Below, one piece after another: positions 1-50,602 of a DNA stretch of 64,000 nt (the first letter of the stretch is position 1; every line of letters starts with the position of its first letter). The position numbers and the translations under genes are program-made. The notes below the pieces were generated by a model that ran no database searches, was not told where the DNA came from, and worked only from the letters and a program-made list of their open reading frames with translations. The stretch comes from Isurus oxyrinchus (Eukaryota). Location of the stretch: NCBI GenBank assembly GCA_026770705.1, contig JANJGN010000010.1, forward strand, positions 168,206,001-168,270,000, written 5' to 3'.

Positions 1-299
1 AATTAAACGTGTGTATAGCTTTAAATGCTGTTAGGAAATCCAAGATGGTGTTGCCGTACATTTCTTCTCAATGAAGTTTCCGGTGCTTGTCAGTTTTGGT
101 GGCCTCACAGTAATGGCGTTTGCAATTTCTGTGTTTTAAAATTCTCAGCAGCATCTCTCTGGATTGACCTTTCTGAGCCTCTCTTGCACTATCTGAGGGT
201 TCTTCGGTCTTGAAACTATTGATTCCCAGCTTCTGCTGGTTTTTCTTTAACTGCTGATTATTTGTTAATTTAATTTAATTTTTTTCTCATTCAGAGCGA

Positions 300-2683: not shown

Positions 2684-3149
2684 CCAAATTACATTCCCCC
2701 ACCCACCAAATTACATTCCCTCACCCACCAAATTACATTCCCCCACCCACCAAATTACATTCCCCCACCCACCAAATTACATTCCCTCACCCATCAAATT
2801 ACATTCCCTCACCCATCAAATTACATTCCCCCACCCACCAAATTACATTCCCCCACCCACCAAATTACATTCCCTCACCCATCAAATTACATTCCCCCAC
2901 CCACCAAATTACATTCCCCCACCCACCAAATTACATTCCCTCACCCATCAAATTACATTCCCCCACCCATCAAATTACATTCCCTCACCCATCAAATTAC
3001 ATTCCCCCACCCATCAAATTACATTCCCCCACCCACCAAATTACATTCCCCCACCCATCAAATTACATTCCCCCACCCACCAAATTACATTCCCCCACCC
3101 ACCAAATTACATTCCCCCACCCATCAAATTACATTCCCCCACCCATCAA
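2684..3149. repeat. 22-bp minisatellite, about 21 copies (CCAAATTACATTCCCCCACCCA with C/T variants)
   Basis: Directly visible tandem array; explains the repetitive 177-aa ORF 2673-3206. Confidence 0.97.
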
Positions 3150-7614: not shown

Positions 7615-8809
7615 ATGTTCCGCACCACGACTGGCTCCAACTGTTGGGACCAAGCTTGGGCTCTTCCTGAACTGTATGCCTCAGCAATTGACTGGGTAAA
7701 CTTGTTGCAAGAGAGAGAAAAGTGCTAATGTCTTCACTTTCTTTTTACTCTGTTTTGTCATTGCATTGTACATTCTTGAGATGCGAACTCTTTGTAATCT
7801 CTAATTTTTGATGCTTTAATGAATCAAACTGTGTTTCACAAATATGTAACAGCTCATTTAACTAAGGGCCTTAAAAATGCACCAATCCTTCCAGTTACAT
7901 TTCTGGACCATAAAGTGCTAAGCATGACTAAGGCACGGGTCTTGACAATTTACTACAAGATACATGGATGTACAGTTTTTCACTGCAAAATGTTTTGGTA
8001 AAATTTTACTGGAACTTTAAGGGAGGTTTACAGAAAAAATAGATATTTCCTCAATAATCTTGATGATAAAAAGTCTTAAATGATAGTTCTCAAAAATATA
8101 TCTTTTTAACAAATGAAGCATTAACACAAATGGCTCGATTTGATAATGTTCACTTCCCATTATGGAACAGCGCGATTCAGAGTTTGATTCTTGGTTTGTG
8201 CTTTATTCACTGATCTTACCAGCAATGGTACACCAACTGGTCAAAAATGAGGAGCTTGCTTCCACCTTCTACCCGGTAATCTGTATTTGAAAATTAACAT
8301 TGGATGAGAACAAAGATCAGGCTTAGCTGTGATGCCACGAAGGTTGAATAGCCTGATGGAGTCCATATGAAGAACAACCAATCAGTAGGAGAACCAAAGG
8401 ATAACCAGTATCCATGGAAACATCCTTTGTGGGATTCAAGAGACAGAGAGCAAATTGTAAAATACACAAATAACAGTCAGCAGTTTTTATCACCTTTACC
8501 AACAGCCATAGTTACTTGTCTAACAATAAGGTAACGGTGCATCTTATTAAATATTCTGCTTATTAAAAGATTTAATCAAACACTGCCAGAAAATTAAAGA
8601 ATGGAAGTTATTGACAATAACATTGTGGTATTGTGATTTGCTTAGCAATCATTTTGATAATAACAGAACAGTAAGTTCAGATTTTTCTTATTTAAAAACA
8701 AATTAACAACTGCTTCAAAAAAGTATAGATAAGGAGATATTTTGTAAATTCCAGGGAATCCATTGAAATTTTGTCAAGCCTTTCCTTTCACAATTCCACT
8801 GGTGCTGGA

Positions 8810-8952
8810 AACAAAGAAAACTGCGGATGCTGGAAATCTAAAACAAAAACAGAATTACCTGGAAAAACTCAGTAGGTCTGGCAGCATCGGCGGAGGAGAA
8901 AAGAGTTGACGTTTCGAGTCCTCATGACCCTTCGACAGAACTTGATGAAGTT
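8810..8952 (-). mobile_element. Short Penelope-like (PLE) 3'-terminal insertion with hammerhead motif
   Basis: Flanked by 13-bp TSD CACTGGTGCTGGA (8797-8809, 8953-8965); near-identical to copies at 9.1, 9.8, 14.2, 25.5 and 28.2 kb. Confidence 0.85.
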
Positions 8953-9060
8953 CACTGGTGCTGGACCTGTTCAAATGCGCCATCTAGTGGAAAATACTAT
9001 CACAGCCTCTGTCTTATAGGAGAACATCCTGCATGGATTCATCTCAAACGGTAAAGTGTA

Positions 9061-9237
9061 AACCAGCTTATATTTCAACTTTTTCTTGGACTCGAACTCA
9101 AGTTCTGTCGAAGGGTCATGAGGACTCGAAACGTCAACTCTTTTCTTCCCCGCCGATGCTGCCAGACCTGCTGAGTTTTTCCAGGTAATTCTGTTTTTGT
9201 TTTGGATTTCCAGCATCCGCAGTTTTTTTGTTTTATC
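9061..9237 (+). mobile_element. Short PLE 3'-terminal insertion with hammerhead motif
   Basis: 8-bp TSD AAAGTGTA (9053-9060, 9238-9245); T-rich 3' tail CCAGCATCCGCAGTTTTTTTGTTTT. Confidence 0.85.
9101..9139 (+). ncRNA. Minimal type I hammerhead-ribozyme-like motif with variant core; also at 8904-8942(-) and in the 14.2, 25.6 and 28.2 kb copies
   Basis: AGUU-CUGUCGA-A-GGGUC(AUGAG)GACUC-GAAAC-GUC-AACU: helix I AGUU/AACU, helix II GGGUC/GACUC, palindromic ACGU in place of helix III, predicted cleavage after C9135. Activity not shown. Confidence 0.7.
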
Positions 9238-9808
9238 AAAGTGTATTTCACCATCAGTAAACCATTTAAAAGTTGAACTGCTGCAAAGAGCAACTTTTGA
9301 CACCTGCTTTTCAATGTTGATTTAACAAACAAAATACTAATAGAATTAATGCTCTTTCAGTGGCACAGAATCTCTTGGGGTAATTTAAACCTATGTGCCA
9401 TACTGGGCAGTTACCCATTAAGGTCAACACAGTCTTTCACATTCATACACACCTACACACCCAAATGTGGCTCCATTTCTCAGTAGCCAGGGGAAGAAGA
9501 GTTCAGCACAGCGCTCCAATTCTTGAATGGTGGTTGAGTTTTTGTGATTAGCTGTGAGTTGACAAGAGAGTCAACCATCCTGTTAGATTAAAAACTAAGG
9601 TTAAAAAATTCATGAGCATTGCACGTAACATAAAGCTGAAGTGGTGAGATAATGATACTGTTTTCCAAAAACCTACATCTTTTGCTAAGCTTTAAGCTGC
9701 TCCATCTAATATCTCCGGCTTTGGCTATGTGTCAATTCTTGTCTAATTATGCTTCTGTTAAGTACCTTGGGAAGCTTTCCTACGTTAAAGGCACTATTTA
9801 AATCCAAA

Positions 9809-9912
9809 ACAAAAACAGAATTACCTGGAAAAACTCAGCAGGTCTGGCAGCATCGGCGGAGAAGAAAAGAGTTGACATTTCGAGTCCTCATGACCCTTGA
9901 ACAGAACTTGAA
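9809..9912 (-). mobile_element. Short PLE insertion lacking most of the tail
   Basis: 13-bp TSD ATTTAAATCCAAA (9796-9808, 9913-9925); its AAATCCAAA overlaps the element's own sequence (microhomology). Confidence 0.8.
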
Positions 9913-11864
9913 ATTTAAATCCAAATGTATTTTAAACAACTGGGCATCGATTGCATTGTGTTGTGTAGTTAGCCTATTAATTTATTGCAACTTCTAACTG
10001 ACTGGGTAGGAGAACTGCTTTAGGTGGCACTGCTTGCCAGAAATCAATCACAGGCCAAATTTTTGTCTGATGTGAATCCTTTAAAATCAACCCAATGTTA
10101 AACTAGAAAGCACTGACTGTATTTCAGTGACTGATAATGTGACGGAGAGCTCAAGAAATTAAATCTGCTCAAGTTAAATATACTCTATTCTGATTTAAAT
10201 TTTAGATTTGATATTATGGAAGGAACAGAGACAATCAGAGCTCTTCCACACCATATCACAATAATAAAGATTGATCATTCTGAAACTGTACATTATTAGC
10301 AGGAGGAGTATAATTACAGCTAGTTAAGGCAGCGGATAGATGTGAGACTGCAGCCAAGCCCTTTTCGGAATAGTTGCTGACAGGCCGTCTACTTACATAA
10401 AATTATCTTCATTTAGATATTATCCTTTTAAGGAAATCTGCGGTTAAGCAATGGTGCTTCAACCCAGTTGGAGTGGCAGAATGCACAGGTTTCTGTGACC
10501 ATTCAGTCACCATTTTTACACTCAGTCACATCATCAGGAGAAGCATGAACCTGGAGTTGTAAAAGGGAACAGGCAATTCTGCTCTTCAATTTGACCCAGG
10601 TTCTCTTCAAACACATATCAACAGCTAGTTCAACACCACAATTGACAGAGGTGATGGCAAGTGGATCGTGGGGAAGGGGAAGGGAGATGAGAATATTATA
10701 TAAAAATGTGGGGGTGGGAGATTCTCCAAAAGGAATTACACACACTGTTTAATGAAGATGATTTATATTTTCTGCCTATGTTAATGTTTTAATGCTAGTT
10801 CCCACATTAATGTACAACAACAATGTTAGTTCACAAGGCACTTTGCAACAATTATACAAACTTTCTGATTAATTTGTTGATCCCCAGCCCTAACTCTTGG
10901 AATAATCTCCTTCTCTGAACCATGCCAAATGCATCAGTATTCTTTTGACGATGATGCCCAAAATTGCTCATTTTTATCAAATACATATTTCCATAAATCA
11001 TTACCTTCTGTTTCTATCATCAAGGTTGTTTTCAAACCAGCTTGCCATTTTGCTAATAATTCCTTGAATCTTAACCTTCTTTAAAAATCTTGCATGTGAA
11101 CATTTCTTCCAGAATTCAGGAATTCTTTAGCAAACTCCACGATGAACCCTTAGAACTGTTCCTCTACTTTCCAACTGCCTCGCGTTGATGCACCACCCCA
11201 TTTGTGTGCCGTTCCTATCTTCTTGAACATAGGAATAAGAAAAAGAGAAAAAAACTTAGGAATATGACCGAGATTGGCCGCTAAAGGTGAGGAATGTTTA
11301 AAGGTCAGTTCCCAACCACCACCACCTGCAGTAAAGTGCACAAAGGTCAACTCAAAATAATGCATTGCATATGCAACACTTCATACATGCTCTTGCACAC
11401 ATGCAAGTTCTTCCTCATTATACTGGGTACCTCTGGAACAGCTGCAGCCAGCAGGCAGCTCATTACATGGAGCAATTGTTGACACTCAAAAATCATCATC
11501 TTGTAATTGCTAGACCCCTGTGTTCTACATCTCTTCATCTGAGATACAACATGAGCTGGCCTTCCGATTCCTGGACTTTCCTTCTCACTTCTACCTGCTC
11601 TGCTCAACTTGTGAGTTCCTCTACTACGGTCACCTTGAGCTTACTGTAAGTCAAGTGGGACGCCTCTGCTAGTGCTTAACCAGGTAAGAGAGAGTAATGG
11701 TGTATTGTCTTCAGAGTTATCCTCATTTGTCTGCTTGACAGCAGCAACCGAGTCATCTGATTGACTTAGATAAAGGGGAGAGGGACAAGTGTTGGGCTGT
11801 AGTTAATCACTGGCAGATGAGTGGTAGCAGAATACATTATTGGGTTATCATAACATAGAAAATT

Positions 11865-13440
11865 TGCAGCACAGAAGGAGGCATTGCTGCTTGTCATGTC
11901 TGTGTGGGCCCAAAAGAGCTATCCAACCTAATCCCACTTTCCACTTCTTAGGGTTACAGGTAACCCTGCAAACTACAGCACTTCAAATGCATTTCCAACT
12001 ATGTTTCAATATATTAAGGGCTTCTGCTTCTACTTCTACCAGCCCTCAACAATTCATGGGGTGAAAAGTTTCTCCTCAACCACCTCCCCCCACCCCCACA
12101 CTACTGCTTTTATCAATTAACTTAAATCTATGTATTGTATTAAATATGTATTAAATCTTGGTATTGACCTCTGTACAATAGGAAATAGGTTCTTCCTACC
12201 CAATCTATCTATACACGCGCCCCCCCCGCATAATTTTATACTCTTCAACTAAATCTCTTCTCGGCCACCTCTGTTCAAAAGAAAACAACCCCAGCTTATC
12301 CAAAAGCAAAATACTGCAGACACTAAATCTGAAATAAAATCAAGAAATGTTGGAAATTTTCAACAGGTCTGGCAGCATCTGTGAAGAAAGGAACAGAGCT
12401 GGTGTTTTAGTTCTATGACCTTGCATCAGAATCGGTGAAAGTTAGAAATGTAATAGGTTATCAGCAAATGAAAGGGAGAAGGAAGGGTGAGAAAAAAATA
12501 ACAAGAGGGAAGGTCTGTGATAGGATGGAAAAAGGAAAGATTAAGTGACAGAAGTGTCCATGAGGGAAGGCTGAAGGGAACAAGACAAGCAAAGAAACAA
12601 GAGGTGTCTGGAGGAAGTGTGAATGGCAGGGTCATGTATAGTTGAAATCAATGAGGGAGAAAAAGACAAACAAATAATGAAAAAAGAAACAAAATGGCTC
12701 CAGAGTTTATGACCCAAACTTGTTGAACTCATTGTTGAGTTCAGAAGGCTGTTGAAAGATGGGGTGCTGTACCTCAAGCTTGCATTGAGCTTCATTGGAA
12801 CATTGCAGGAGGAAGAGGATTGAGAGGTCAGTGTGTGAGTAAGGAGGAGAATTAAAATGACAGGCAACTGAAAGTTCAGGGTCACACTAACACTTCTGCC
12901 AGTTTATTCAATCTTTCCTCATAGCTAAACTTCTCCACACTTGGCAGCATCTTTGTGCATCTTCTCTGCACCCTCTCTGGTGTGATCGAATCCTCCCTGT
13001 AATGCAATGGCCTGAACTGTGTGCACTACCCTAATGGCTGTCTAATTGATGCTTTATACAGTGCTAGCATAATCTCCCTGCTCTTATACCCGATGCTTTG
13101 GCCAATAACAAAAGTATCTTTTTTGCTGTCTTAACCAGCTTATCTATCTGTTCTGGTACCTGGAATCAGTGGGTATGCAGTCTAAGGTCTCTCTGTTCCT
13201 CTACATGCCTCAGTATCCTACCATTTATTGCATATTCCTTTGCCTTTTTTTCCCATCTCCAAATGTATTACCCCACAGTTCTCTACCCATCTGACCAGTC
13301 CATTGATATTTTCCTGACGTCTACAACTTTCTCCCTCACCAGCAACCACGCAGCCAATTTTTATGCCATCTGCAAACTTCTTAATCATATTCCTACATTT
13401 AAGTCTAAATCATTGATATATACCACAAACAGCAAAGAAT
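11865..13440 (-). mobile_element. Old CR1-clade LINE fragment interrupted by the PLE at 12303-12890
   Basis: Plus strand reads as the reverse complement of a CR1 3' region (tail at 11865-11930, then RT-region sequence such as TTTTATGCCATCTGCAAAC, the reverse complement of a FAD codon block). Confidence 0.65.
12303..12890 (-). mobile_element. 5'-truncated Penelope-like element: GIY-YIG endonuclease C-terminus, 3' UTR and degenerate hammerhead
   Basis: Minus strand 12886-12707 translates CDPELSVACHFNSPPYSHTDLSILFLLQCSNEAQCKLEVQHPIFQQPSELNNEFNKFGS*, the VAxHFN..H..KLE..GLN end of PLE ORFs. The terminus 12303-12430 is homologous to the short PLE copies. Confidence 0.85.
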
Positions 13441-14215
13441 GTAGGTACTTAGCTTTGCAGAAACCCAATCATTACACCAGGCCTCTCGATTGCTAGTCCA
13501 GTAACATAACCACTATACCAGCAATCCACTGCCGTGGTCTCTAATTACATCAATGGTAGCCTCTTCTGTGAGTGTCAGTGTTTGCTATATAGCAGGACCT
13601 CTCTTGCTGAATGCTAGGTTCTCCTCCAAGAAGAGTGGAAGAGTTAATATGTATCTTGAGCAAAGACTTTCAACCCTCACCATGTATGAAACAGTTTACC
13701 ATAAAAGGAGCAAATATAGTCAAGAAGGAAAAGCAGTTATGAAAGCATTATCAAATATTGTGGGTGTAACTTCAAGCAGAAATGATATGCAGTGAGCTCT
13801 TCCAAGCTGACTTATAGATAGCTATGATAAGCAGGGAGGGAAGGATTGATGAGGCTGAAGTAAAGATAAGATGCTTGACAGGCTGTGTTGAAAGGATGAG
13901 ATAATTCTTACCTTGGCACTCCTGGTAAGAGCATTAAATTTCTTTTAGTGCCACTGCCAGATGTTGGTGAAAATCCTGATGGCATTCATGTGTTGTGCCT
14001 TTTGTCACCATGCCTAAAATTTCCAAATTTCTAAAATTTCCTCTGTTATCTATCCACCATCCACAGGTAAAAGGACTTTCTTTCTATTGTATAGTTGCTC
14101 CATCTTCACAGCTGTATCAAAACAACTTAATTCTCTGTTGGAACCACAAACATCATCCTGCAAATCCACCTTTTGGCTTCCCTATGTTGCACACAAAAAA
14201 ACTCTCCTTTAAGTT

Positions 14216-14464
14216 AAAAAATAAAAACAAAAAACTGCGGATGCTGGAAATCCAAAACAAAAACAGAATTACCTGGAAAAACTCAGCAGGTCTGGCAGCA
14301 TCGGCGGAGAAGAAAAGAGTTGACGTTTCGAGTCCTCATGACCCTTCAACAGAACTGTTCGACTAGTTCTGTCGAAGGGTCATGAGGACTCGAAACGTCA
14401 ACTCTTTTCCTCTCCGCCGATGCTGCCAGACTTGCTGAGTTTTTCCAGGTAATTCTGTTTTTGT
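14216..14464. mobile_element. Fold-back PLE insertion: tailed copy on minus strand plus inverted tail-less copy on plus strand
   Basis: 14-bp TSD CTCTCCTTTAAGTT (14202-14215, 14465-14478); arms of about 100 bp around spacer GTTCGACT. Confidence 0.9.
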
Positions 14465-16064
14465 CTCTCCTTTAAGTTGCTGCAGACCTTTAAGAAGTTG
14501 CGGCAACACCCACCCAATTTCTCATCTCTCTATCAACCAGCTGCTAATGAGCAGCACGCTTCATGCTGACAGATCATCTCCATCACGCAAATATGAGGTG
14601 ACCCAGAAATTGTGACAAGACTCCTGCTGCTTCCTCCAGGTCTCTGCTGCTGTTCTTTTTCTCACCTTTCACCCATTTCGTGCTGGGTGATTGAAGTCAA
14701 CCCTCATCTTTGCTGCTGCTGAGGAAGCATGATCAATATTAATTAATATTGACATTGCTGGTTGACAACATGGGACAGAAGTCATCCAATCATGATCCTT
14801 TACATTTAGCTGTGAGCTTTAGTGGATTGAAGGATGCACTTTGAGATTTGTTTGCTCTTTAAAACTGTGTATTAGACTAGCAAAACACAATAATATCACA
14901 TCAATGGGAATCAATGCACGGCTCCAGGCTTCTTCACATTGACTATTTGAAAGCAGGAAAGGTGAAGGACAGTCACTGATAAGCATTCAGATAGTTGTTT
15001 TAATATTTAAGATTATGTAATAAATTAGAATAAACTTCCCATTGAAGAGCCATTTACGCAGTCGCAAGTTTGTTTTGGGTTAATTAATAACAGCACAAAA
15101 TTCAGTCCCTAATCAGATCAATTTTGGTTAAGAATTAGTTTGCTGAGAGGAAACGAGTGGGATATAAACTAAACACAGATGCTGAACCTACTCAAACCAG
15201 GCTAGGATTTAGGATCCTCTTTCAAGATATAGTAGACTGGCCACAATGGATTAGGAAATCAATTGCTGACTTCCCTCCCCTCCACCCAACCCCAAATCCT
15301 AGTGAAATTACTTCTTTCCCATTTTATTCCCCTTTATGTTTCCCTTTTTCCCAAGAAGATCTAGCTCATCTTTAAAACGGTTTCATGAATGTCCATAACT
15401 CTCTGGTACCTCACCAAAGTGATCATCTTTCAGGAATAAGTGTCGTCTGCCCATTTACTTTGCGGGGAAGGCTGATCTTGTCTTCCTATAACTCACAAAT
15501 GTTAACTGACAGTATATAATGGAAACACTGGCTGAATTTTTTCCTCTTCATAATTTTTCGTTCAGCTGGTGATTATGTTAATGCTAAAGGGCTATGGACG
15601 TAAAAGAATAATGGTTAAAAAACTCCTACCTGCTCAAATCTCCTTCACTGTGTATGTGTGTGTGTGTCTGTCTGTCTTACAGATGATACAGGTCCGGAAG
15701 AACAACAATTTGTGATTTGCCCTGATTTTCTGCATTCATTCCAGCCAGTGTTTACTTCCTAATTCATCCCGAATTGGTTGTACACATATTGAATTTTGTT
15801 TAATAGGCATTCTTGTGGCATCACAATGATTTATTTAATGGGTGGTGCTGCATTTGCAAATACCAGTTCTGTCAGCTTCGAGTGCTGTTTTTTCACTATT
15901 TGTTTGCTGAATTCTTAGTGTTTTAAGTTCTAGAATTTGGATCTGGATGACCTATGGAATCTATGCTTTTGTAGATTCTGCTAACAGTGAGAGGTAAGGT
16001 TTAGTGATATTTTGATAGCTTTAGACCAATCTGTTAAACCTCAAACTATATATGTATTATATAT

Positions 16065-16968
16065 TGTCAGGAAGATACAATAATTTTCATAATGTTATTG
16101 GAATTTATTGTAAAGTAGAGTAATAGTAGGGTCTGTGTGTGTGACGTAATTGAATTAAAGGCAGATGATCTGAAGGCTTTGATGTAACAGAAGATAAGCT
16201 AGGTTTGAAGAGTTAAGTAGGTAAGTATAAGTGTAAAGGGAACATTTGCATTTTTAGATAAACCAACTAGCTTGAATTCAAAATGGTTGGGGGGGTGAGT
16301 GGTGGTGGTGAAATGTTTCACCCTTCACCTAGTCAGAAGTTAAGAAACCGTGTGTTTATTTTTCCCATATATTACTGGTAAAATTGGTACTATGAGAGAT
16401 TTTTATTATCAGAGAGATAAAGTCTAAAGACATGGTGAAACAATGGAAATTTGTATTCAAAGGGGAAAATATGGATAAAGGAGAGAAGGCTGTGAGCAAT
16501 GAAAGGCATTCTAAGATCTAACAAGTGTGAAAATCTTTAGCATCTAAGCTTCAAGCTGCTGTCTACTAAGAACTGAAGTTAAGAAGATTCACTTTGAATT
16601 CAACTGATTCAGAGTACCGTGTTTCTTTGCCTGGATCTTTTAAAACTTATGTGCCTTACTGTTGCCTTAAAAGAAGTGTAACTGGTTAACTAGGGGATTA
16701 GTTAACCAGGTTAGATTAACTAGGGGATTTAGAAGTTAGCATAGTAGTAATTTGTAGATCTATGTATGTACTTCAAATCATTTCTTCTATTAATAAATGG
16801 TTAATTTAGTTTTGTAAGAAATCTATAAGAAGCAGTGGTTTTATTACTGTTGAATTCAAAGCCCGCACCTTGAAATTTATGCAAATTGCAAAATAGTTGT
16901 GGCAGTTGTTTCAAGTTTCCCTTTGGGATTTGAGCAGCTCAGCATTTACCATCGGCTGTGCCATATCA
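16065..16968 (+). mobile_element. Solo LTR, family A
   Basis: TG...CA ends, 4-bp TSD ATAT (16061-16064, 16969-16972), AATAAA near 16792; homologous in reverse to 19150-19926. Confidence 0.75.
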
Positions 16969-17007
16969 ATATACGTATAGGGATATATATACGCGAGCAT
17001 ATGATAT

Positions 17008-18080
17008 TGTCATGATGGTAGAAAATTGTGACTGATAAGGTCTACCTATAATTTCACCACAAAAACATATTGAACAGTTTAAAGAGGGCCTTTTAGAAAA
17101 AAAACACGATAAGACACTGACAAAAGATGGCTACCACCGGTCATCTGGTATTGTATTTTTCTGGAAAGTTCCTGCGTGGATTGCACTGCAGACTGGCATG
17201 GCATGTTGCATGGAATTTCACATCTTGGGGGGGTGGGGTGTGGGAGGGAGTGTCAAGATGTCAAGGTCTATTTCAAAAAGGGACCCTTGAAAAGAAGGCA
17301 ACATAAAAGCAAAGTGTTGGACATTCACCAGTAATTCTGTAAAGACAATAGAAAATGCTAACCAACCAGATACACCCAACAAACACTCAAAATCCCTGGT
17401 GGAGGATGAAATAACCCCCTCTCCTATTAGTTTCTGCTGTCTTGAAATGTGTCAAAAATGCTTCTGAGATCAAAGATCAAAAATGTGATTACTTATTCGA
17501 CAACAATGACCGCAAGACATGGTAATCAAGTTCTTTCTTGGAATATACAGACAGGAGGTTTAAGAATGGTTTTTGCCAAGCCAGAAACAGAAAAATCAAA
17601 GTCATCTGGAAACATTGCCGACAGGAGCAGTAAGGAATCTCTCTCTCTCCCTCTGAAGCTAAAATTGAGTCCAGCAGGGTGCAGTTACCTGAACTTCAAT
17701 TTAACTTCAAGATTTTAAAGGAAACCAGTGAACTTCAAATGGCTGTAACGTTCAACAATCTATGCCTCAAGGACAAACAAAGGATTTAGTCATATATTCT
17801 TTTAACTTTTATTGGGACTCTATCTTTTCCTACTTCTGAGACCCTGTGTGTGTGTTGTCGCATTTTTTATTACTTTTTCTCAGGTTTCGTAACTAATAAA
17901 TTTATTCTTTCTTTGACTCAAGAAAACCTGGTTTGATTGGCTCCTTATTAAAAGGTAAATACATTTGGATTGGAAGAGGCATCTATGGGGAAAATAAATT
18001 TTTAAAAAACCTTTGTTGCAACCAACCGAGGGGGCTGAATATAGAGGAGCTGGCTCACTCCTCCTCACCTGGTTGTAATA
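17008..18080 (+). mobile_element. Solo LTR, family B
   Basis: TGTCATGA...TTGTAATA ends (CA decayed to TA), TSD ATAT (17004-17007, 18081-18084), AATAAA near 17895. Confidence 0.65.
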
Positions 18081-18634
18081 ATATATATATTTACATGTAT
18101 ATCTATATGAGTTTTCTTAAGTCACAGACTTCCAATACAGCAGGTACATCAAACTCATGCTTTAAAATAAATGTCAGAGAAAAAGTATTGAAATTGGTGA
18201 TACCAGCAGTCAAATTGTTAAAGTAATACAAAGTGAATCCTTCCCATTGAGTGATTTAGTGAAATTGCATTGCCTTTCGCATCGTCAAGACAGTTATTGT
18301 GCCATGCAGTAAAGTGAAATTCACAAGTCTGTGCAGATTAGAAAGATCAGTCTCCTAGCATTTAACAGAAATAATGATGGAATTGCTTTCAAGTTGCTGA
18401 TTCCAGAATGTTGTCTCTTTTCCCATTTATGTGGCCTAGTTTACTTTCATTTGAGAGACCTTGTACTAGTTGAGGACCTTGCAACTGTCTTCTCTTCACA
18501 ATTTATTCAACATCTTTATTTTAATATCCTAGTAATGAATTTTGTCCTCAGAACTTAACCCTTTAAGCCCTGGTATTATTCTGGAGAATGTGTGAATGTA
18601 CTCCCTGAAAAAAAACATTTATTCCCTTGAGTTA

Positions 18635-18995
18635 AAAGGGCGATCTAATAGAGAAGTTGACAGAGTAAATACAGAGACATGTTATTTATTTTGGTGAGAG
18701 AATCCAGAACAAAGGAGCATAATCTTAAAATTAGAGCCAGGTCATTTGGGGTGAAGTCAAGAAACACTTTCTCAAATGAAGATAATTGAAAGTGTGGAAC
18801 TTTCTCCAACAAGAGGCTATGGATGTTAGGTCAATTGAAATTTTCAACTTTGAGAGATAAACAATTTTTTATTAGGTAACGTTATCAAGCAATATTGATT
18901 AAAGGTGGGTAAAATACATTCATGAACAGATCAGTCATGATCTAATTGAATGGCAGAACAGGCTGTTGTGGTCAAATGGCCTACTCTTGTTTGCC
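18635..18995 (+). mobile_element. Old CR1 3' fragment
   Basis: Homology to the 3' end of the CR1 at 46640-47000 (GATCAGTCATGATCTAATTGAATGGCAGAACAGGC...AATGGCCTACTC). Confidence 0.75.
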
Positions 18996-19149
18996 TGTTT
19001 CATGGAAATTTTACTAACTGTTTTGTCTTGGATTCAGGGTTCAGATGGGGTTTCTTTGGGATTTGCCTGTTATCCTAAGAATGCAACCATACACTGTTAT
19101 TCGTAATAAACATTTTTATTTATTTACAGATCTATGTACATCTCAGTAT

Positions 19150-19926
19150 TGTCATGACACAGCAGTTGTTAAAAGCTGAGTTATTTAAAATTACAGAGGG
19201 AAACTTTAAACAACTGTCATAACCTATATTTTCAAGTGGTATGTTTGAAATGCAGTTCTAAATTCAGGAATAAGACCACCAGTTCCCGAGAGGTTTTTAT
19301 ATCAAACTACATGAGAAATGTATTAATTCACATTAGTTAAACAAATACACATATGTTATAAATGACTACTATCATAATTTTTTAACAAATTCCCAAACTA
19401 ATCCCCACTAAGGCAACAACAACCCATAGACTTTAAGCAGGCACCAGGCAACATATTTTCACCTCACAAATTCAAAATGAGGTATCTTTCACTTTGGGTT
19501 CCTTTGCAGACAGTTGTAGGCTGTCAGGCTTTGATGTTGCATGCCTCTGCTCTGCACACACAAAACTGTTTTCTGTTATACCCAGCACTTCTCCTTGAAT
19601 GTAAATTCTCATTGTATCATCAGGCCCTTTGAACTCCACCTCTTCTAACAATAAAACCTCTTTCATAGTATCAATTTTATTAGTAATATAAAGATTGCTT
19701 GATGTCTACTAGCTAGATGCAAGATTTCACTCCCACTCTAGAATGCTCTATTCAACAAAATGCAAATGTCCTCTACTTCTTTGTTTACATCTCAAAACTA
19801 CTATACATCAAAGCAGCCAGACTAGCTGGCTTTAATCCAATTAACACACGCAGACAAACCAACAGACTAAATCTCTATTTAAAAAAAAATTCCAATGACA
19901 TTATCTACATCAATACCTTCATGATA
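19150..19926 (-). mobile_element. Solo LTR, family A, inserted in the Gypsy 3' LTR
   Basis: TGTCATGA...TCATGATA ends; reverse complement shares TAATGT.ATTGGAATTT, TAATTG.ATTAAAG.CAG and ACATTTGCATTT with 16065-16968; it splits sequence that is contiguous at 30340-30480. Confidence 0.75.
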
Positions 19927-22557
19927 CTACTCTATACAACATTGTACTTCTGCTTCCCACCAGACCGCTCTCTTAATCATGTGACATTGCATCATAATTA
20001 CACCAGTATCAGGTGGTCCTGATGGTAAGCCTTTAAGTCTCCCCCCAAGTCTTTATCCTAACTACATACATTCTCCTGTATCTCCCCCAAAGTCTCAAAC
20101 TTCACAGGATTAGCTTCTGTTGTTCCTTGACACATTTCCCTGATCTGGCCCTCGTTTCATTTCACAGTTGAGGACAAATGACACTTTCTCATTGTTCGAT
20201 AGGAGTGTCTTCCACCTGGGTGGTTGTAGATTTCTTTCTGGTTCCTTGACTTCATCTGGATCTAAATAGTATGTCTAAGGTTCCATTGATTTCCTTACCA
20301 ATGAGATCAAGGTTCTTCAGTTCCTTCTGATAGTTGCCTGGTCCACCTCAACTCTATAAGATCTTGGTTCTGGAGGTCTTTCCATTACAATTCCTTCTTT
20401 CTGTTGCTGTTAATCTCCTATCCACACTCTACCCCTGGGCTATAGAACTTTCCAGTCTTGTGCTCTGTTGAAATTACGAGCTTCACTGTCTCTTTGTTGC
20501 TCCTCACGCTTTCTAACTTTCTCACGATCATCTAAGATTGTAGTGTTTGTTGTGGAGCTGGAAGTTGTGATTACAGCCATCTTATCATCAGTAGTGCTGA
20601 TGAGATTCTGTAGTTAAGAGGGCTAAGTTAATATCTTCATTCTTTTTCATCAATTCCTTGATAGTTCGAACTCCTCTTTCTGCTTCTTTGTTCGACTGAG
20701 GATGCCTAAGCGAACTAGTCACATTCATGAAAACATTTTCCTGCTCAAAGTTGTGGAACAGCTCATTAGCAAACTGAAGTCCATTGTCTGACTCCGCAAC
20801 ATCCGGGATGCTATGTATTGCAAAGATTCTTCTTAGTGATGCAATGACTGCCTCTGCTGTGGTGCTGTGCAGTCTACTCACTTCAAACATTTGGAGTAGT
20901 ATGCAATGGTGATGATGAAAACTTTGCCTTTAAAGTCAAATAAATCCATTCCCAGGTGCTGACAAGGCCTCAGATGAAAAATGGAGTGTGCCAGTGGTCC
21001 GTTCTCCTGTTGACAATTCACTGCACACATAAGGCAACTTGAGATTAACTCTTCAATGGAGTTACTGAAACCTGGCCACCAGATTGACTGCTGGGCTCCT
21101 GCTCAGTGGGCATTTCGCTATCCCCAAGTGACCTTGATGTTTTTTGGATAATGCTGAGTCGAAGTGTTTTAGGGATGACTAGTCTGTCATTAAAAACTAA
21201 GAAATCATCAATAATTGTGAGGTGTTTTCTCTGAAGTATTGGTGAAATACTGTGTTAGGAAGAGTAACCAAAGGTTTCTGGTTGATTTCAATTTTAAACC
21301 TTAATCCCATGACATAATCAGAGAACTTCTCACAAGCCCATATGGCTGCTAATGCTTCTTTCTCAATGGCTGCTTACCTTTTCTCTGTGTCTGGGAGAGA
21401 CCTTGAGGCATAATAAACTGGTCTTCTTTGTCCATCTTTTTGAACTTGAAACAGCACTATGCCCAAGCTGGTAGATGATGCATCTGCTGCTACAATTGTT
21501 GGCAATTCTGGATCACAGTGCACTAGAATTTCTGGTGAAATTAGGAGATTTTTGATCTTTTCAAAAGTATTTTGCTTCTCCACATTCCTGCACCACTGTT
21601 GACCTTGTCTCAACAGCTGTCTTTAACAGCTCATTGATTTCCACCAAGTTTAGTAGGAACTTAATTACTGATTGACCATGCCAAGGGATCTTTATAATTC
21701 TGTGATGTTTTTAGGCTCCCTCGTGATAACTCTAATGACCTTGGTTTTCTGCCAGTCAGCCATAATTCCTGAAGCTTGCACAACGTGCCCTAAGAACGTT
21801 ATCATAGACTTTGCAGATTCATATTTGTCGTTTGATGTCAAACCTGCTTCGTGTAGAACTTTGAGGACTGATCTCACTCAATGGTCGTGTTCTTCTCTAG
21901 ATGGGTCATGTATGAGAATGTTGTCCATATGGCATATTACACCTTCCATACCTTCCAGGGTTTCAATATCATTCTTTGGAATATCTCAGGTCTAGAAGCA
22001 ATTCCAAATGGTAACCTGCTAAACCAATAATGACTAAATGGGGTGATAAAAGTAGATAGCAATCTGGATTCTTCATGTAGAGACAAATGCCAAAAGCCTC
22101 AGTTAGCATCCAATTTTGTGAAGAGGGTTCTTTTTGTCAATTTGGCCCGACTTTCATGCCATCGGGTGGAGCGCATGCTCTACTGACTTGTTTAATTGAG
22201 TCAAATCCACACAGATTCTAATTGGACCATTAAACTTTGGTACTGTGACTATTCCAGAACACCACTTTGTCAGTGTGGTTACTGGAGAGATGACCCCTTG
22301 TTGTAATGTGTTCAATCTCACTCTTGACTTTGTCTGGTGTCTGGGGGAAGTGCTGGCTAGCCTCGGAGGCAACTACTGAGGGGGGTGTGGTTTCCAAGTG
22401 CTGCCCTGGTGCTGCATCCCACACACAGGCAATCGAGGTGGGGGACAGAGTAAGCGAGGGAAGTGGCCACGCATTAGGGACACCCTATATAAACTGACCA
22501 TTCCTCTGCAACTGAGACAGATTGGGTGCAGCCACAGTGATATGATTGGGGTCAGGA

Positions 22558-23300
22558 TCTGTGAGTGACTCAGAATGTAGGTGTCATGCACAGTCCTTGG
22601 AAAGCGTGCACACACCTGTAGGGTGGGTTTCTGGTAGTCGCATACCAGCTGCACGTTCAGTGAGGGGAAGCCTTTGCAGTTGATAAAGTCCACTCAGTGT
22701 AGCAACAGAAACCTGAGCGCCATATGAGTGCAGTCAATCGCACGCTGTGGGAATCCCGAGATCCGGGTGAATCCAATGGCTCTTGCCCAGGCTGTCCCGG
22801 TCCCGGGCAAAATGCACAAAGTTGTGTGACGTGGAGAAGATGGCATCTGTGAATTCATGGATGCATTTGTGGGTGGTGGATTGTGAAATTCCACAGAGGT
22901 TACCTGTGGAGCCCTGAAAGGAGCCACTGGCATAGAAATTGAGTGTCGAGGTCACTTTCACAGCCACTGGCAGTGGATGCCCTCCATGTCCTCTTGGCAC
23001 CAAGTCCTGCAGTAAGTGGCAGGTGTGAGTCACCAGGTCCCTAGACATGCACAATCGTCAGCGACACTGGTTCTCAGTCATCTGCAGGAATGTCAGGCAG
23101 CGTCTATAGACCCTGGATGTCGCTAGGTGCCAACCGGACACAGTTCACTGTCAGTTCTGGGCAGTGTGTGCAGGAGCTCCTGCTGCCTCTTCTTCATGAG
23201 GTTACTGCTCCTGCCTTTGCGTGGCCAGGAGCCTCAATCACTCTGCCTTCTCCACTCTCTGTAGGCCATCAGGCACACAGCTAGGTCACCAGGATCCATG
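22558..23300 (-). pseudogene. Harbinger (HARBI1-like, DDE_Tnp_4) transposase, frameshifted and C-terminally truncated
   Basis: GGHPLPVAVKVTSTLNFYASGSFQ..GISQSTTHKCI, GFPQ.AIDCTHMALR and FINCKGFPSLNVQLVCD..VCARFP..VHD spread over ORFs 22734-23054, 22694-22933 and 22373-22693. Confidence 0.9.
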
Positions 23301-26300
23301 ATCCTGACGTGGTCCTCCTGCAGTGGTATAGAGAGAGAGATGTGGTTATCATGGCTGTACTTAGCACCTTTCCTGGCCCTGTGTGACCGCCCCTTAATGC
23401 TTCCCGAAGAGTGCCGGTCACCCCTCGGATGACCAGAGATGAATGAGCTGCATGGCTGCCCTGTCAACCTGTGACATGGGAGGTGACTGGTCCAAACCAG
23501 GATGCTGGGATTGCAAGGGGCTGTGAGCACCTCCAACAGTGACTGCTACATGGTCAGCATTGGCGAGGAGATTGTACAATCTGGAGGGTCGAGACTTGCA
23601 GGGCCCCCGGCCTGCTTTCAGGATCCTGCTTTGTGGCAGTGGCACCCTCCTCGGCCTGTGAAGCTGGAGCTGCTGAGGTTACAGGAAGAGGGGATTTGGA
23701 TGGACCGGGCACTCCCAGAGTCACCTGGGTGGATGGCCGTGGAGTGTGCACCTGCTGATCCTCCTCCCTATGGGTGCCCGAGGGCCCCTGGCTGACTCCA
23801 TGAGCGGAAAGTGTAGCTGGAGTGAGATCGAGCCGCCCAGCACCCCTCTCATGTACACACTGTTGGAGGCCAACTATGGTGTCAGCGATGGAGCTCAGCC
23901 CGTGCAGCAGTGCAGGAGTGAAGTCCTGGACCAAGGTCATCATGACGGCTGCCATCCTGCCAGTGTTGACCTTGGTGCGTTGCAATGCCGGTGCTATCAC
24001 CTCAGCCTGAAGACGGATGGACTCCTCCATCATCCCTTGCAATCTGAGGAGTGCAGCAGACATCCTTTCCTGATGTTCCCGAGCTTGTCTTTGCAACTCC
24101 AGAAACTGTGACATGACCGAGTCCAGAGGGTCATCATCTGACTCGGACTCAGCAATGTTCTGGCCTCCAACAGTCCTGCGAGTGCCGGACACCTGGGAAG
24201 TCCCTGTCTCTGCCTGCTGTGGATCAGAATGTGCGATTTGCTCACCAGATTGTAATCCTGGGATTACTCTAAAGCTCGGTCCCACTGAGGTCTGTCTCTG
24301 CGCTGGTGGAGGGTGTGGGTGAGCACTGTGATGGGACTTCTGGGAGGGTACCTTCATATTCTTCTTCAGCGGTTTTTTCAGAGTTTGCTTGGAGACTTTG
24401 GGTCATGCACTCTGTCTGCAGCTTCCCAGATATGCCTGCGAAAGCAAGGGGAGACAATTAGTGCATGGCAGTAGCCTGTGAAAGAGGACACATCACTCAC
24501 AGCATGGTTGTCTGATGGATGTTGCACTGCTGTATCCTCACTTGGTAGAGCAGCATCGACCTCACCGGCAGCACAGGACCGGTCCTGGTCATCGCCAGCC
24601 AGCTGGATGGCTCTGTTTTCAAACTCTGTCGGAACTTTGAGTTCTGGTCTCCCTCCACCTGTCTGTGACCTTTCCCTCCTGTTGTGAGTCAGTTTGTCCT
24701 GCATGGATAGAGATCGCAAGAGTGTAACAGGACTCCTGCTGGGCCAGATGTTAAGTATACCTGGCCTGTGCGGGTGGTGAGTGGTCCCGTGGACGGGATG
24801 AGGACAATGACGGGGAGTGTGAGACAGTGAATGGTGATGTCCCTTGTACTGGCAGTGAGTGAGCGCCCTGTGGGTATGTGATGGGTTTGAGAGTGTGTAA
24901 GTTGGGAGTGATGAAAAGAATGACTTATCCTGGCAGAATGGAGGAGATCATTCATCCTTTTGTGGCACTGGGTGGCTGTCCTCTTCGGATGGGCGTTGGC
25001 ATTGACCAGCACTGCCACCACCTCCCAAGCCGGGTTGGTGACATTTCTACCCACCCTGCGGCTGGAGCGGGGGTAGAGCACATCCTGGTGAGACTCCACG
25101 GCATCCAGCAGTCGCTCGAGGGACCCGTCATTGAAGCGGGAGGGGGCTGCAGTCTTTTTGCCTTTGCTGGCCATGTCTCCCAGGCAGCGGTGGTGAGCTG
25201 GTGGTGATGAGCACTTTGCTGGCGGCTGCTTTTTAAAGAAGTTGGCTGGTGTGATGGCAAATGGGCGAATGAGAGCCTGTCCGACATGGAAATGGTGTTT
25301 TTCTTGGGAGTGAATAAATAATGAGCCAGCTCGGCGTGAAAACCTACCATTTTCTTCAGCAGGTAGGACTCCATTTTACCCACCTACTACCACACTTAGC
25401 GCAATTCCGGGAAAATTCCACTACTTGTGAATGAGCCTGAGCTGCAAACATGCTTTTCCTGCTCAATTATGATGAACCCTCACATACAGCAGTTCCACAA
25501 TTTCTTTAGTTGAAAACAAAGAAAACTGCGGATGCTGGAAATCTAAAACAAAAACAGAATTACCTGGAAAAACTCAGTAGGTCTGGCAGCATCGGCGGAG
25601 AAGAAAAGAGTTGACGTTTCGAGTCCTCATGACCCTTCGACAGAACTAGTCCTGCAGTAAGTGGCAGGTGTGAGTCACCAGGTCCCTAGACATGCGCAAT
25701 CGTCAGCGACACTGGTTCTCAGTCATCTGCAGGAATGTCAGGCAGCGTCTATAGACCCTGGATGTCGCTAGGTGCCAACCAGACACAGTTCACTGTCAGT
25801 TCTGGGCAGTGTGTGCAGGAGCTCCTGCTGCCTCTTCTTCATGAGGTTACTGCTCCTGCCTTTGCGTGGCCAGGAGCCTCAATCACTCTGCCTTCTCCAC
25901 TCTCTGTAGGCCATCAGGCACACAGCTAGGTCACCAGGATCCATGATCCTGACGTGGTCCTCCTGCAGTGGTATAGAGAGAGAGATGTGGTTATCATGGC
26001 TGTACTTAGCACCTTTCCTGGCCCTGTGTGACCGCCCCTTAATGCTTCCCGAAGAGTGCTGGTCACCCCTCGGATGACCAGAGATGAATGAGCTGCATGG
26101 CTGCCCTGTCAACCTGTGACATGGGAGGTGACTGGTCCAAACCAGGATGCTGGGATTGCAAGGGGCTGTGAGCACCTCCAACAGTGACTGCTACATGGTC
26201 AGCATTGGCGAGGAGATTGTACAATCTGGAGGGTCGAGACTTGCAGGGCCCCCGGCCTGCTTTCAGGATCCTGCTTTGTGGCAGTGGCACCCTCCTCGGC

Positions 26301-28292
26301 CTGTGAAGCTGGAGCTGCTGAGGTTACAGGAAGAGGGGATTTGGATGGACCGGGCACTCCCAGAGTCACCTGGGTGGATGGCCGTGGAGTGTGCACCTGC
26401 TGATCCTCCTCCCTATGGGTGCCCGAGGGCCCCTGGCTGACTCCATGAGCGGAAAGTGTAGCTGGAGTGAGATCGAGCCGCCCAGCACCCCTCTCATGTA
26501 CACACTGTTGGAGGCCAACTATGGTGTCAGCGATGGAGCTCAGCCCGTGCAGCAGTGCAGGAGTGAAGTCCTGGACCAAGGTCATCATGACGGCTGCCAT
26601 CCTGCCAGTGTTGACCTTGGTGCGTTGCAATGCCGGTGCTATCACCTCAGCCTGAAGACGGATGGACTCCTCCATCATCCCTTGCAATCTGAGGAGTGCA
26701 GCAGACATCCTTTCCTGATGTTCCCGAGCTTGTCTTTGCAACTCCAGAAACTGTGACATGACCGAGTCCAGAGGGTCATCATCTGACTCGGACTCAGCAA
26801 TGTTCTGGCCTCCAACAGTCCTGCGAGTGCCGGACACCTGGGAAGTCCCTGTCTCTGCCTGCTGTGGATCAGAATGTGCGATTTGCTCACCAGATTGTAA
26901 TCCTGGGATTACTCTAAAGCTCGGTCCCACTGAGGTCTGTCTCTGCGCTGGTGGAGGGTGTGGGTGAGCACTGTGATGGGACTTCTGGGAGGGTACCTTC
27001 ATATTCTTCTTCAGCGGTTTTTTCAGAGTTTGCTTGGAGACTTTGGGTCATGCACTCTGTCTGCAGCTTCCCAGATATGCCTGCGAAAGCAAGGGGAGAC
27101 AATTAGTGCATGGCAGTAGCCTGTGAAAGAGGACACATCACTCACAGCATGGTTGTCTGATGGATGTTGCACTGCTGTATCCTCACTTGGTAGAGCAGCA
27201 TCGACCTCACCGGCAGCACAGGACCGGTCCTGGTCATCGCCAGCCAGCTGGATGGCTCTGTTTTCAAACTCTGTCGGAACTTTGAGTTCTGGTCTCCCTC
27301 CACCTGTCTGTGACCTTTCCCTCCTGTTGTGAGTCAGTTTGTCCTGCATGGATAGAGATCGCAAGAGTGTAACAGGACTCCTGCTGGGCCAGATGTTAAG
27401 TATACCTGGCCTGTGCGGGTGGTGAGTGGTCCCGTGGACGGGATGAGGACAATGACGGGGAGTGTGAGACAGTGAATGGTGATGTCCCTTGTACTGGCAG
27501 TGAGTGAGCGCCCTGTGGGTATGTGATGGGTTTGAGAGTGTGTAAGTTGGGAGTGATGAAAAGAATGACTTATCCTGGCAGAATGGAGGAGATCATTCAT
27601 CCTTTTGTGGCACTGGGTGGCTGTCCTCTTCGGATGGGCGTTGGCATTGACCAACACTGCCACCACCTCCCAAGCCGGGTTGGTGACATTTCTACCCACC
27701 CTGCGGCTGGAGCGGGGGTAGAGCACATCCTGGTGAGACTCCACGGCATCCAGCAGTCGCTCGAGGGACCCGTCATTGAAGCGGGAGGGGGCTGCAGTCT
27801 TTTTGCCTTTGCTGGCCATGTCTCCCAGGCAGCGGTGGTGAGCTGGTGGTGATGAGCACTTTGCTGGCGGCTGCTTTTTAAAGAAGTTGGCTGGTGTGAT
27901 GGCAAATGGGCGAATGAGAGCCTGTCCGACATGGAAATGGTGTTTTTCTTGGGAGTGAATAAATAATGAGCCAGCTCGGCGTGAAAACCTACCATTTTCT
28001 TCAGCAGGTAGGACTCCATTTTACCCACCTACTACCACACTTAGCGCAATTCCGGGAAAATTCCACTACTTGTGAATGAGCCTGAGCTGCAAACATGCTT
28101 TTCCTGCTCAATTATGATGAACCCTCACATACAGCAGTTCCACAATTTCTTTAGTTGAAAACAAAGAAAACTGCGGATGCTGGAAATCTAAAACAAAAAC
28201 AGAATTACCTGGAAAAACTCAGTAGGTCTGGCAGCATCGGCGGAGAAGAAAAGAGTTGACGTTTCGAGTCCTCATGACCCTTCGACAGAACT
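23003..28292. repeat. Tandem duplication, unit 2645 bp (23003-25647 and 25648-28292)
   Basis: All ORFs repeat at offset 2645; only four differences noticed by eye (23051/25696, 23136/25781, 23415/26060, 25009/27654). Confidence 0.97.
23554..25174 (-). pseudogene. Harbinger Myb/SANT-like DNA-binding protein gene, three exons; second copy at 26199-27819
   Basis: RFNDGSLERLLDAVE...AWEVVAVLVNA..RTATQCHKRMNDL is a Myb/SANT-like (NAIF1/MSANTD-type) domain; exon 2 DKLTHNRRERSQTGGG. The first donor reads ATAAGT where the 36.5-kb homologue has GTAAGT. Confidence 0.85.
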
Positions 28293-28390
28293 AGTTCTGT
28301 CGAAGGGTCATGAGGACTCGAAACGTCAACTCTTTTCTTCTCCGCCGATGCTGCCAGACCTACTGAGTTTTTCCAGGTAATTCTGTTTTT
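28154..28390. mobile_element. Fold-back PLE insertion forming a perfect 202-bp palindrome (28192-28393)
   Basis: 17-bp TSD GTTCCACAATTTCTTTA (28137-28153, 28391-28407); apex GACAGAACT|AGTTCTGTC with no spacer. Confidence 0.92.
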
Positions 28391-29029
28391 GTTCCACAAT
28401 TTCTTTATCCTTGTATCTTGACCTTGCCAAGTGTTGCCCTATTACTTTTCATGTTGCCCCTCCAGGACATTTCAACTGGATTGGGGACGGCTGTAATGAG
28501 ATATTTTTGAGCCATTTTATTTTGTCAGACAACAGTGAAAATCTGCGCCAGTATCGAGCTTGAATTCTGTGGGGTGACCATCAACTTCTATGTTCATGCA
28601 CCAATACTTATTTTCTGTTTCATTAGCTTTTCTTAAGAAAGATTATTTTTTCTGTAACTCTTCCACTTCTTGGATTTTATTGAGTTTTGTTGTTATTTTT
28701 TTCTTCCTATGACCTATCGGAACTTTGGATCTGCAGGCTATTTTAAAATGTCGTAACTTTCCACACTTGTGCCACTCTGCTCCCCCTGCTGGGCATTCCC
28801 CCTGCTTGTGTAGGTTTTTCCTGCACATGGAGAGCATCTCAAGATGGTGATTGTCATGTTTTTTTTCCAGTTTAGCAGGCTTTTGCTTCACTGCACCTTC
28901 TCCTTTTTGTCTGACACACTGAATGGCTTCACTCATTTTCTTCCAAAGAATATCACCTTCCCACAAACAACCGCTCTGTTTTGCTTCCTAAGCTGCGGCC
29001 TGTTGCACTATTTGTACTGCCTTTGTTAT

Positions 29030-49378: not shown

Positions 49379-50318
49379 CATTTCAGTAACTTACTGTTTA
49401 CCTTTGGTTGCTTTTGAGCTACCTCTTGTAAATTTGTTTGCTTTGTCTTCTGTGCATCTCATGCTTGTAAATGGACCCAGAAGTCTTCCTATTTTTCTGT
49501 CTCTTTGTCTTTATGAACTTATATCTCTTTATGCACTGGCTTCTATGTCTCTGACTGAAATTGACATGTCATTCACTCTCCCTCTGATTGTCTGACTGTG
49601 TATTTGTGCCTCTGGGCATTTGTTTCTTTATATGGGGGTTTCTTTTAAAGGGTCTTGGATCCAGTCTTGGAACTATACAAGGGAGTAAAGGAGAGAGAAG
49701 AGGGAGCAGGGAACAAATTTAGGGGAATATTCCAAAAGCAGGGGCTGTGCTTCAGGAAATCAGGTGTCATGGGAGAACATATATTCTCATCCTTTTGATG
49801 TGCAGTGTATTAAATTTGTAACTGCTGCATATACAGCAGTAATAAACATTATTCTTTGCTACTCATTTTCTGCCATGGAACTGCTCACAGACAAAAATAG
49901 AAAAAAAAGTCCTTCTTTTGACCATCTCCCTGTTTATTTCCTGCTGTCTAATTCTATATGCCTCCCCTCTTTCTCTGTCAGAATTATAGTTTTCTTTTCA
50001 CTTTTTCTTTGCATGGCTCTCACAAACTTTCTCTCATTGTCATCTCTGTGCACCACTTACACTATATTTTATTCTTCCTCCCTGTAAGAAAATAAGCACA
50101 AGTACCCTTTTAAGCCATTGTAAAGGGGCAGGGGCAGTGCCTGATGTAAGAGCTTGACAATGGCAGTGAGCACTGTGTGGATGAGGGGAAGTTGGGTGGT
50201 CAGGAGATGTGTTGAAGGGAACAGGTGGCTTTTTGGAGGAAATGGGCTGGGCTAGAGATGGGAGAGATGTGTTGAAGAAAGAGCTACACAGAAGGAGAAT
50301 CTGTGCAGCATAGAGGGA

Positions 50319-50602
50319 AACAAAAACAAAAATACCTGGAAAAACTCAGCAGGTCTGACAGCATCTGCAGAGAGGGACACAGTCAATGTTTTGAGTCTGT
50401 ATGACCCTTCATCAGAACTGAGAAATATAGAAATGAGATGCAATATAAGCTGGTAGAGGGGGGCGTTACAGGTAGAGCTCGATAGGGGGCCAGTGATAGG
50501 TGGAGGCCAAGAAGAGACTGCCAAAGATGTCATAGACAAAAGGACAAAAGGGTGTTGACGGTGGTGATATTATCTAAAGGATGTGCTTATGGTATTCTCC
50601 GA
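50319..50602 (-). mobile_element. Older PLE 3' insertion with canonical CUGAUGA hammerhead core (50381-50419)
   Basis: 13-bp TSD CAGCATAGAGGGA (50306-50318, 50603-50615); minus strand AGTT-CTGATGA-A-GGGTC(ATACA)GACTC-AAAAC-ATT-GACT. Confidence 0.82.

Follow-up and report, generated by a model that had tools for sequence, protein, structure and literature searches.

The window, i.e. the whole 64,000-nt stretch of Isurus oxyrinchus DNA that was analysed, contains eight young, near-identical units, all of which were recovered at 96-100% identity when it was searched by BLAST with positions 9095-9240 as the query, together with older relatives. The features are:

8809-8945, minus strand: young 5'-truncated pLTR end; motif at 8904-8942 with core CUGUCGA; 13-bp TSD (8797/8953).
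9058..9236, plus strand: young 5'-truncated pLTR end of ~180 nt (9095-9240 by BLAST); 8-bp TSD (9053/9238).
9101..9139, plus strand: minimal type I hammerhead motif of the 9.1-kb unit, from sequence and folding, consisting of helix I, CUGUCGA (U6 at 9108), an extra A, a 5-bp helix II, GAAA and the palindromic ACGU, with the predicted cut after 9135.
9800-9911, minus strand: tail-less pLTR end with a decayed motif (CUGUUCA, AUGU); 13-bp TSD (9796/9913).
12302-12431, minus strand: still older relative from the short-loop family with A6 (71% by BLAST), absent from the earlier note.
14221..14464, both strands: single insertion with two head-to-head arms, 14221-14356 (minus) with a tail and 14365-14464 (plus) without one; 14-bp TSD (14202/14465).
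25513-25647, minus strand: copy of the 28158-28292 arm made by tandem duplication; no TSD of its own.
28158..28393, both strands: single insertion with two head-to-head arms, 28158-28292 (minus) and 28293-28393 (plus), forming a perfect 202-bp palindrome (28192-28393); 17-bp TSD (28137/28391).
50318..50454, minus strand: older, CpG-decayed relative with the canonical CUGAUGA; motif at 50381-50419 (BLAST 50318-50419, 81%).

The earlier note, which was made from the letters of the sequence, had described eight such units from five independent insertions with TSDs of 8-17 bp, and both statements stand. The TSDs are 13, 8, 13, 14 and 17 bp long, and the 25.5-kb unit, which has no TSD of its own, is carried by a 2.65-kb tandem duplication (23003-25654/25648-28299, 99.8% identical), leaving five independent insertions. 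The exact CUGUCGA core was found in six of the eight young units, the minus-strand arm at 14.3 kb having CUGUUGA and the 9.8-kb copy CUGUUCA. The latter, with AUGU instead of ACGU, is indeed the more degenerate copy, and the older relative with the canonical core is located where it had been reported. The proposed size of ~140 nt has to be amended for the 9.1-kb copy, and the arms of the 14.2- and 28.2-kb pairs end ~35 nt apart. The 2.65-kb duplication ends at the tip of the palindrome, with a short shared sequence at the joint, and could be the product of either a palindrome-induced break or an assembly artefact. Elsewhere in the window, there are a degenerate self-inverted repeat of ~435 bp (77%) at 47009-47443 and a tandem array with a period of ~66 bp at 2684-3149.

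All eight units derive from an autonomous Penelope-like element (PLE) of the Neptune type, 3.33 kb long, of which they are pLTR ends truncated at the 5' side. Upstream, most of the 30 best genomic matches continue into a 3'UTR and a reading frame that has YIDD and GIY-YIG-like motifs. The units, which had been taken for a separate family of ~140-nt insertions, are therefore continuous with the 3'UTR and ORF of an autonomous PLE and represent truncated element ends. A separate non-LTR retrozyme or SINE-like family, which would be a non-coding unit in head-to-tail repeats with a hammerhead in each, was also rejected, as the units are dispersed solo or head-to-head. The proposed origin, Penelope-derived minimal type I hammerheads, was borne out.

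Twenty loci, tandem units among them, were selected for carrying the 5' part of the ORF. In two of these (L146 and L157) the 918-aa ORF is intact from its ATG, which lies 171 nt after C3 of the motif, and L157 has a 3,333-nt tandem unit whose two motifs are 3,333 nt apart, with U6 in both pLTR copies. The single ORF of both loci encodes an RT followed by a GIY-YIG endonuclease at the C-terminus (Pfam RVT_1, E 1.9e-8, above the cut-off; GIY-YIG, E 8.8e-4, just below it), and the RT-EN linker in the L157 translation, CPRKRCNTC, is CX4CxxC, which fits the CX2-5CxxC definition of Neptune/Nematis. Further features of EN+ PLEs are present, namely partial tandems (pLTRs), inverted 5'-truncated copies and a 30-40-bp tail at one end. 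The element shares the single ORF with RT before GIY-YIG, the CX4CxxC linker, partial tandems, an inverted 5'-truncated copy and a tail with the Neptune EN+ PLEs in the accessible text of 10.1101/2021.04.23.441226, where Naiads are given as lacking hammerheads; the assignment to Neptune is made from linker and layout, and the linker is shared by Nematis. A relaxed descriptor scan of one copy of the 3,333-nt unit (L157) found no second hammerhead on either strand.

Near-full-length elements lie inside short tandem repeat arrays in L152 and L157 (~52-bp period in L157). Between +80 and +168 from C3, L157 has a candidate intron of ~90 nt, with GTAATT as the donor and a pyrimidine-rich acceptor that stops immediately ahead of the ATG (+171). 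It would enclose both 3' ends of the genomic copies, and the donor GT arises at the step from subfamily S1 to S1b. In the S1-S4 consensuses, the 5' edge of helix I has a pyrimidine tract that terminates in AG and resembles the intron end described at helix I of D. virilis Penelope; the youngest subfamily has this tract in altered form. In ~15 of the first 100 old copies among the matches listed, a different upstream head (G, any, CC, purine, TTAAC) precedes the common tail; they may form a chimeric or SINE-like family that uses the tail of the PLE.

To establish the state of position 6, the 34-nt young motif was counted exactly in the whole 4.98-Gb genome. The U6C7 form (CUGUCGA) has 59,315 matches and the reversed motif, as control, has none, so the motif is not a chance occurrence. 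The same motif with C6 has 1,520 matches, with A6 (either pyrimidine at position 7) 121, with G6 87 and with A14G 92. In a random sample of 114 arbitrary 10-kb stretches (1.14 Mb) there were 51 young arms, which extrapolates to ~2e5 genome-wide; 38 of them cover position 6, with 37 U, one C and no A. The middle-aged arms of this sample had 13 A and 10 U (six without position 6), and the old arms 23 A (21 without position 6). U6 is the template state of the young element and, given the 37 of 38 sampled copies, A6>U belongs to its consensus, as previously suggested, and not to scattered dead copies. The young units depart from the canonical core CUGANGA/GAAA, which their ancestors carry. A hidden active A6 subfamily among the young copies was rejected: the A6 count is close to that of G6, taken as background, and each of the three long A6 copies that were examined is placed within the U6 copies.

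C6 is an amplified, template-level side branch. By eye, U7 accompanies it in 89 of 100 C6 copies among the matches listed, versus 25 of 92 A14G copies. In L140 and L286, C6 is present in two opposed copies each, 2.2 kb and 0.5 kb apart, respectively, which are probably the two arms of one insertion.

Of 57 exact matches to the old short-loop family, position 6 is something other than A in 12 (G in 7, C in 3 and U in 2) and position 7 is changed in 6, so that the excess at position 6 is not clearly above decay. Among assembled contigs under four organism labels (one contig for D), T>A at position 6 stayed below 5%, which hints weakly that U6 is shared by relatives. The CpG-decay share at window positions 9132-9133 was 15-17% in one run of unrecorded kind, as opposed to 0.5-3% in three runs whose kind is given as, or guessed to be, RNA, which weakly hints at transcripts coming mainly from young intact copies. 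The repeat is also present in one coral metatranscriptome, which suggests fish material or contamination.

The earlier note attributed the fixation of A6>U to the youngest subfamily; the change is older. Exact genome counts of the older motif (GUU, other loops) were 5,472 for U6 (CUGUUGA) and 2,032 for A6. A tree was built of 114 copies that extend 370 nt or more upstream, most of them recovered by targeted searches, and has the shape of a ladder, from A6A7 through A6U7 and U6U7 to U6C7. These older U6 motifs and the ladder show that the proposed timing was wrong. Support is below 0.9 for the node uniting all U6 copies and 0.92 for the next node (89 tips). The mean divergence of copies from their own consensus is 5.2% in the first U6 group and 1.5% in the youngest (104 of the 114 copies used, with three groups of three members each). 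Judging from these sequences, U6 was fixed several subfamilies before the youngest, alongside U7, GUU and other loops, and persisted through several later subfamilies.

The consensuses of S2, S6, S7a and S7b were compared to determine what has changed since U6. In this comparison, 82 of 325 3'UTR positions (25%), 12 of 56 third codon positions and 2 of 110 first and second codon positions were different. Within the motif, the 12 other core positions, the 8 helix I positions and the 3 positions of L3 and A9/1 were all unchanged, and among the 8 of helix II that were counted there was a single change, which turned A-U into G.U; N7 and N17 (2/2) and 2 of 5 loop II positions had changed. Changes therefore fell on 4 of 7 free versus 1 of 31 structured positions (Fisher p 0.002), a pattern to be expected of a working hammerhead. 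This could be because the U6 (or C6) dimer still cleaves, probably at a reduced rate and with the help of a protein or cation, and cleavage is still selected, an explanation that we regard as possible but rather unlikely. The catalytic and pairing positions stayed static in the U6 era while those free in the hammerhead changed, and position 6 alone varied at template level among the counted core changes (C6 1,520 versus A14G 92); however, A14G is the sole other core change that was counted genome-wide. For the stasis of the core taken by itself, p is 0.03-0.06 when the rate of the UTR or of synonymous sites is the reference; the downstream 70 nt, however, are conserved as well (7/70 changed), and with their rate as the reference p is 0.28, which is not significant. 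A natural A6C hammerhead cleaves in Mn2+ (PMC7151607) and the ribozyme of PAc is protein-assisted (PMC11167929), both in favour of a working variant.

The ACGU palindromic helix III remnant, the extra A and GUC or GUU are present in all subfamily consensuses. Helix II, closed by G10.1-C11.1, has two compensatory pairs relative to the older short-loop family, and none of 500 shuffles reached its score, which reflects one event pair counted on 21 hand-picked copies. Helix I, with 4 bp, is nearly invariant, shows no real two-sided change and is not predicted by RNAalifold. The covariation across families to which the earlier note had looked was thus found for helix II. Within the main lineage (23 copies) there was no two-sided covariation, which counts against a cleaving U6 dimer under selection.

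The fold values given here are nearest-neighbour predictions, in which tertiary contacts and protein lie outside the model. The hammerhead as first drawn (helix I AGUU/AACU, helix II GGGUC/GACUC) can be formed, at -5.9 kcal/mol, but it is not the monomer MFE (-7.3 kcal/mol). The MFE of the isolated young motif is a rod, with a folding energy no better than shuffles (z 0.06). An Rfam scan gave no hammerhead match at E<=5; its miRNA matches were on the inverted pairs and were dismissed as palindrome artefacts. Predicted in-context helix II pairing is 0.67-0.96 in S1, 0.73-0.90 in S2 and 0.00-0.07 in S6/S7 (0.96, 0.90 and <=0.01, respectively, with 40 nt upstream and 100 nt downstream). This predicted loss of the fold in the young subfamilies also speaks against a working variant. 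Helix I pairing in context is predicted to be near zero, 0.00-0.19, in all subfamilies.

These helix I values, together with a rod as the monomer MFE and conservation that is region-wide and extends beyond the core, would fit a ribozyme that is fully dead, its hammerhead fold irrelevant and its letters kept either for a DNA-level or sequence-specific role, such as an internal promoter or recognition by the endonuclease or RT, or as a rod-like hairpin. Both post-U6 changes beside the core also add G-C pairs to the rod. We consider this explanation improbable. In S6-S7 the partner strands of the rod are not those of S2-S5, which means that its structure is not conserved, and its count-based support is no better than shuffles. 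The compensatory pairs of helix II likewise argue against it. The low helix I values are also predicted for canonical A6 ancestors, which makes the in-context model a weak guide.

U4 to G8 can pair with CGU-N17-A1.1, and U17>C and U7>C convert two G.U pairs of this helix into G-C; the changes at N7 and N17 can therefore equally be read as strengthening an alternative helix, which counts against a working variant. With A6, the young sequence would form a perfect 5-bp helix, at a predicted -11.3 kcal/mol (native -7.3). For the double hammerhead, gaps of 4.7 kcal/mol in the A6 ancestor, 6.7 in the first U6 sequence, 4.5 in the young sequence and 12.5 in the young sequence with A6 are predicted. 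The idea that U6 arose to relieve a misfold was not supported, as U6 in the ancestral background widens the predicted gap (6.7 versus 4.7 kcal/mol). U6 is thus predicted to have been no help at its origin and to be entrenched now, because A6 would complete the inhibitory helix. The absence of cleavage after restoring A6, which had been proposed as a refutation, is predicted to be an unsafe control in the youngest sequence, where A6 would cause misfolding and could mislead.

Insertion junctions could serve as a proxy for cleavage. Counted from C3, the 51 random young arms start 9 times at -10..0, 8 times at 1..28, once at 29..33, 5 times at 34..60 and 28 times further upstream, so there was no clear junction peak at the predicted cut site (1/51 at +29..+33). 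Almost every cDNA that reached the cut site passed through it, and likewise in A6 families. In a targeted count, the cut site itself is the start of 8 of ~47 truncations at +26..+38, where the mean for a position is 3.6, a weak excess in favour of a cleaving variant; two of the eight have microhomology to helix I, and a T-run position has 7. This count was made by eye from the first 100 of 2,763 matches, and about half of the 100 were dropped as deletion or insertion variants; old A6 families are too decayed to serve as a control. The junctions neither show nor exclude cleavage. Cleavage followed by religation would leave no trace in them. Transcription beginning sharply at helix I's 5' edge was rejected, since starts are scattered over -11..-1 and a broad stop zone fits better; an apparent peak at -4 (6/31) was a product of the single reference used.

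Between an active variant and a dead fold, as the alternatives had been put, the sequence evidence leans towards attenuation. The explanation that we hold to be somewhat favoured is an attenuated, dispensable hammerhead inside a region that is still under constraint. In the source lineage, A6>U became fixed several subfamilies back, and amplification went on afterwards. Self-cleavage is likely to be much weakened by the change, transposition likely proceeds from uncleaved RNA, and cleavage is probably not rate-limiting. By analogy with PAc (PMC11167929), the protein of the element would nick DNA and start reverse transcription at two internal sites ~35 nt apart, here putatively near +100 and +134 from C3, and copying would run back across the motif, often stopping at the 5' edge of helix I. 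Such internal starts and stops could generate the 100-140-nt units and the inverted pairs with and without a tail. Constraint on the entire stretch between helix I and the start sites, through protein binding, a promoter or residual protein-assisted cleavage, may account for the preservation of the rest of the motif, with only position 6 relaxed to pyrimidines. The later U7>C and U17>C are predicted to entrench U6. Points against attenuation are that the double-hammerhead fold is predicted to lie nearest in energy in the native young sequence (4.5 kcal/mol) and that C17 is the favoured cleavage base.

A more specific possibility, which we put forward only tentatively and think unlikely, is a pyrimidine-6 hammerhead (U in the main line, C in the side branch) that would cleave only as a protein-assisted or cation-gated dimer, with U6 locked by the N7 and N17 changes. 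Hammerheads are near-universal in canonical PLEs and are slow in vitro. The minimal PLE hammerheads described in PMC4209133 have low dimer activity and share with the shark motif the short helix I, the extra base after A9, G10.1-C11.1, GAAA, the palindromic helix III remnant, the pLTR location and solo as well as opposite-strand copies. However, A6 is present in all 56 representatives of Fig. S3 in that source, which include no cartilaginous fish, and the core variant in its accessible text is U3-A8, whereas here position 6 is altered. Because its descriptor fixed the core, U6 would have been missed. In the accessible part of 10.64898/2026.07.22.740005, one cartilaginous fish was sampled and there are no core variants. 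Published mutants at position 6 are poor cleavers, which speaks against activity, and single mutants of the CUGA turn are poorly active (PMC9901934).

The natural A6C hammerhead of phage Bcep176, slow in Mg2+ and good in Mn2+ (PMC3088659, PMC7151607), likewise has a pyrimidine at position 6, and the string CUGCUGA of the shark C6U7 side branch is identical to a mouse-gut mutant tested in the same sources. Bcep176, in contrast, is a single phage sequence with full tertiary contacts, while the shark motif is minimal and dimer-dependent, mainly U, and present in ~2e5 arms. In PAc (Poseidon, Anolis), the tail is explained by two internal sites at which reverse transcription starts, insertion in vitro is unaffected by hammerhead mutations, and cleavage needs protein (PMC11167929). 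Both elements have a tandem pLTR-ORF, two 3' ends ~35 nt apart (the tail) and a hammerhead upstream of these ends. They differ in that the PAc motif overlaps the ORF start, while the shark ATG is 171 nt after C3, and in the Neptune-type Cys linker and altered position 6 of the shark element. Neither a natural A6U nor a shark PLE hammerhead was found in the accessible literature, and no A6U cleavage rate was found in print there; variant surveys beyond it may list such cases.

The surprise is limited by what was known before: the element, the layouts of its insertions and variation at position 6 as such (A6C). In this animal retroelement, U6 is fixed in the main lineage and a C6 side branch has also spread. 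The shark lineage bears on what PLE hammerheads do: in a vertebrate, a change in the core that would be expected to cripple catalysis was fixed, ~10^5 copies were made after it, and all the intermediates are still present in the genome. If cleavage in the dimer does depend on a protein or cation with a pyrimidine at position 6, the genome would record a dated, stepwise path to a new ribozyme core. If the ribozyme is dead, the lineage would provide in vivo evidence for cleavage being dispensable and for a second role of the motif. If it is active, the consensus of the hammerhead core would have to be widened, and CUGANGA descriptors would overlook very large families.
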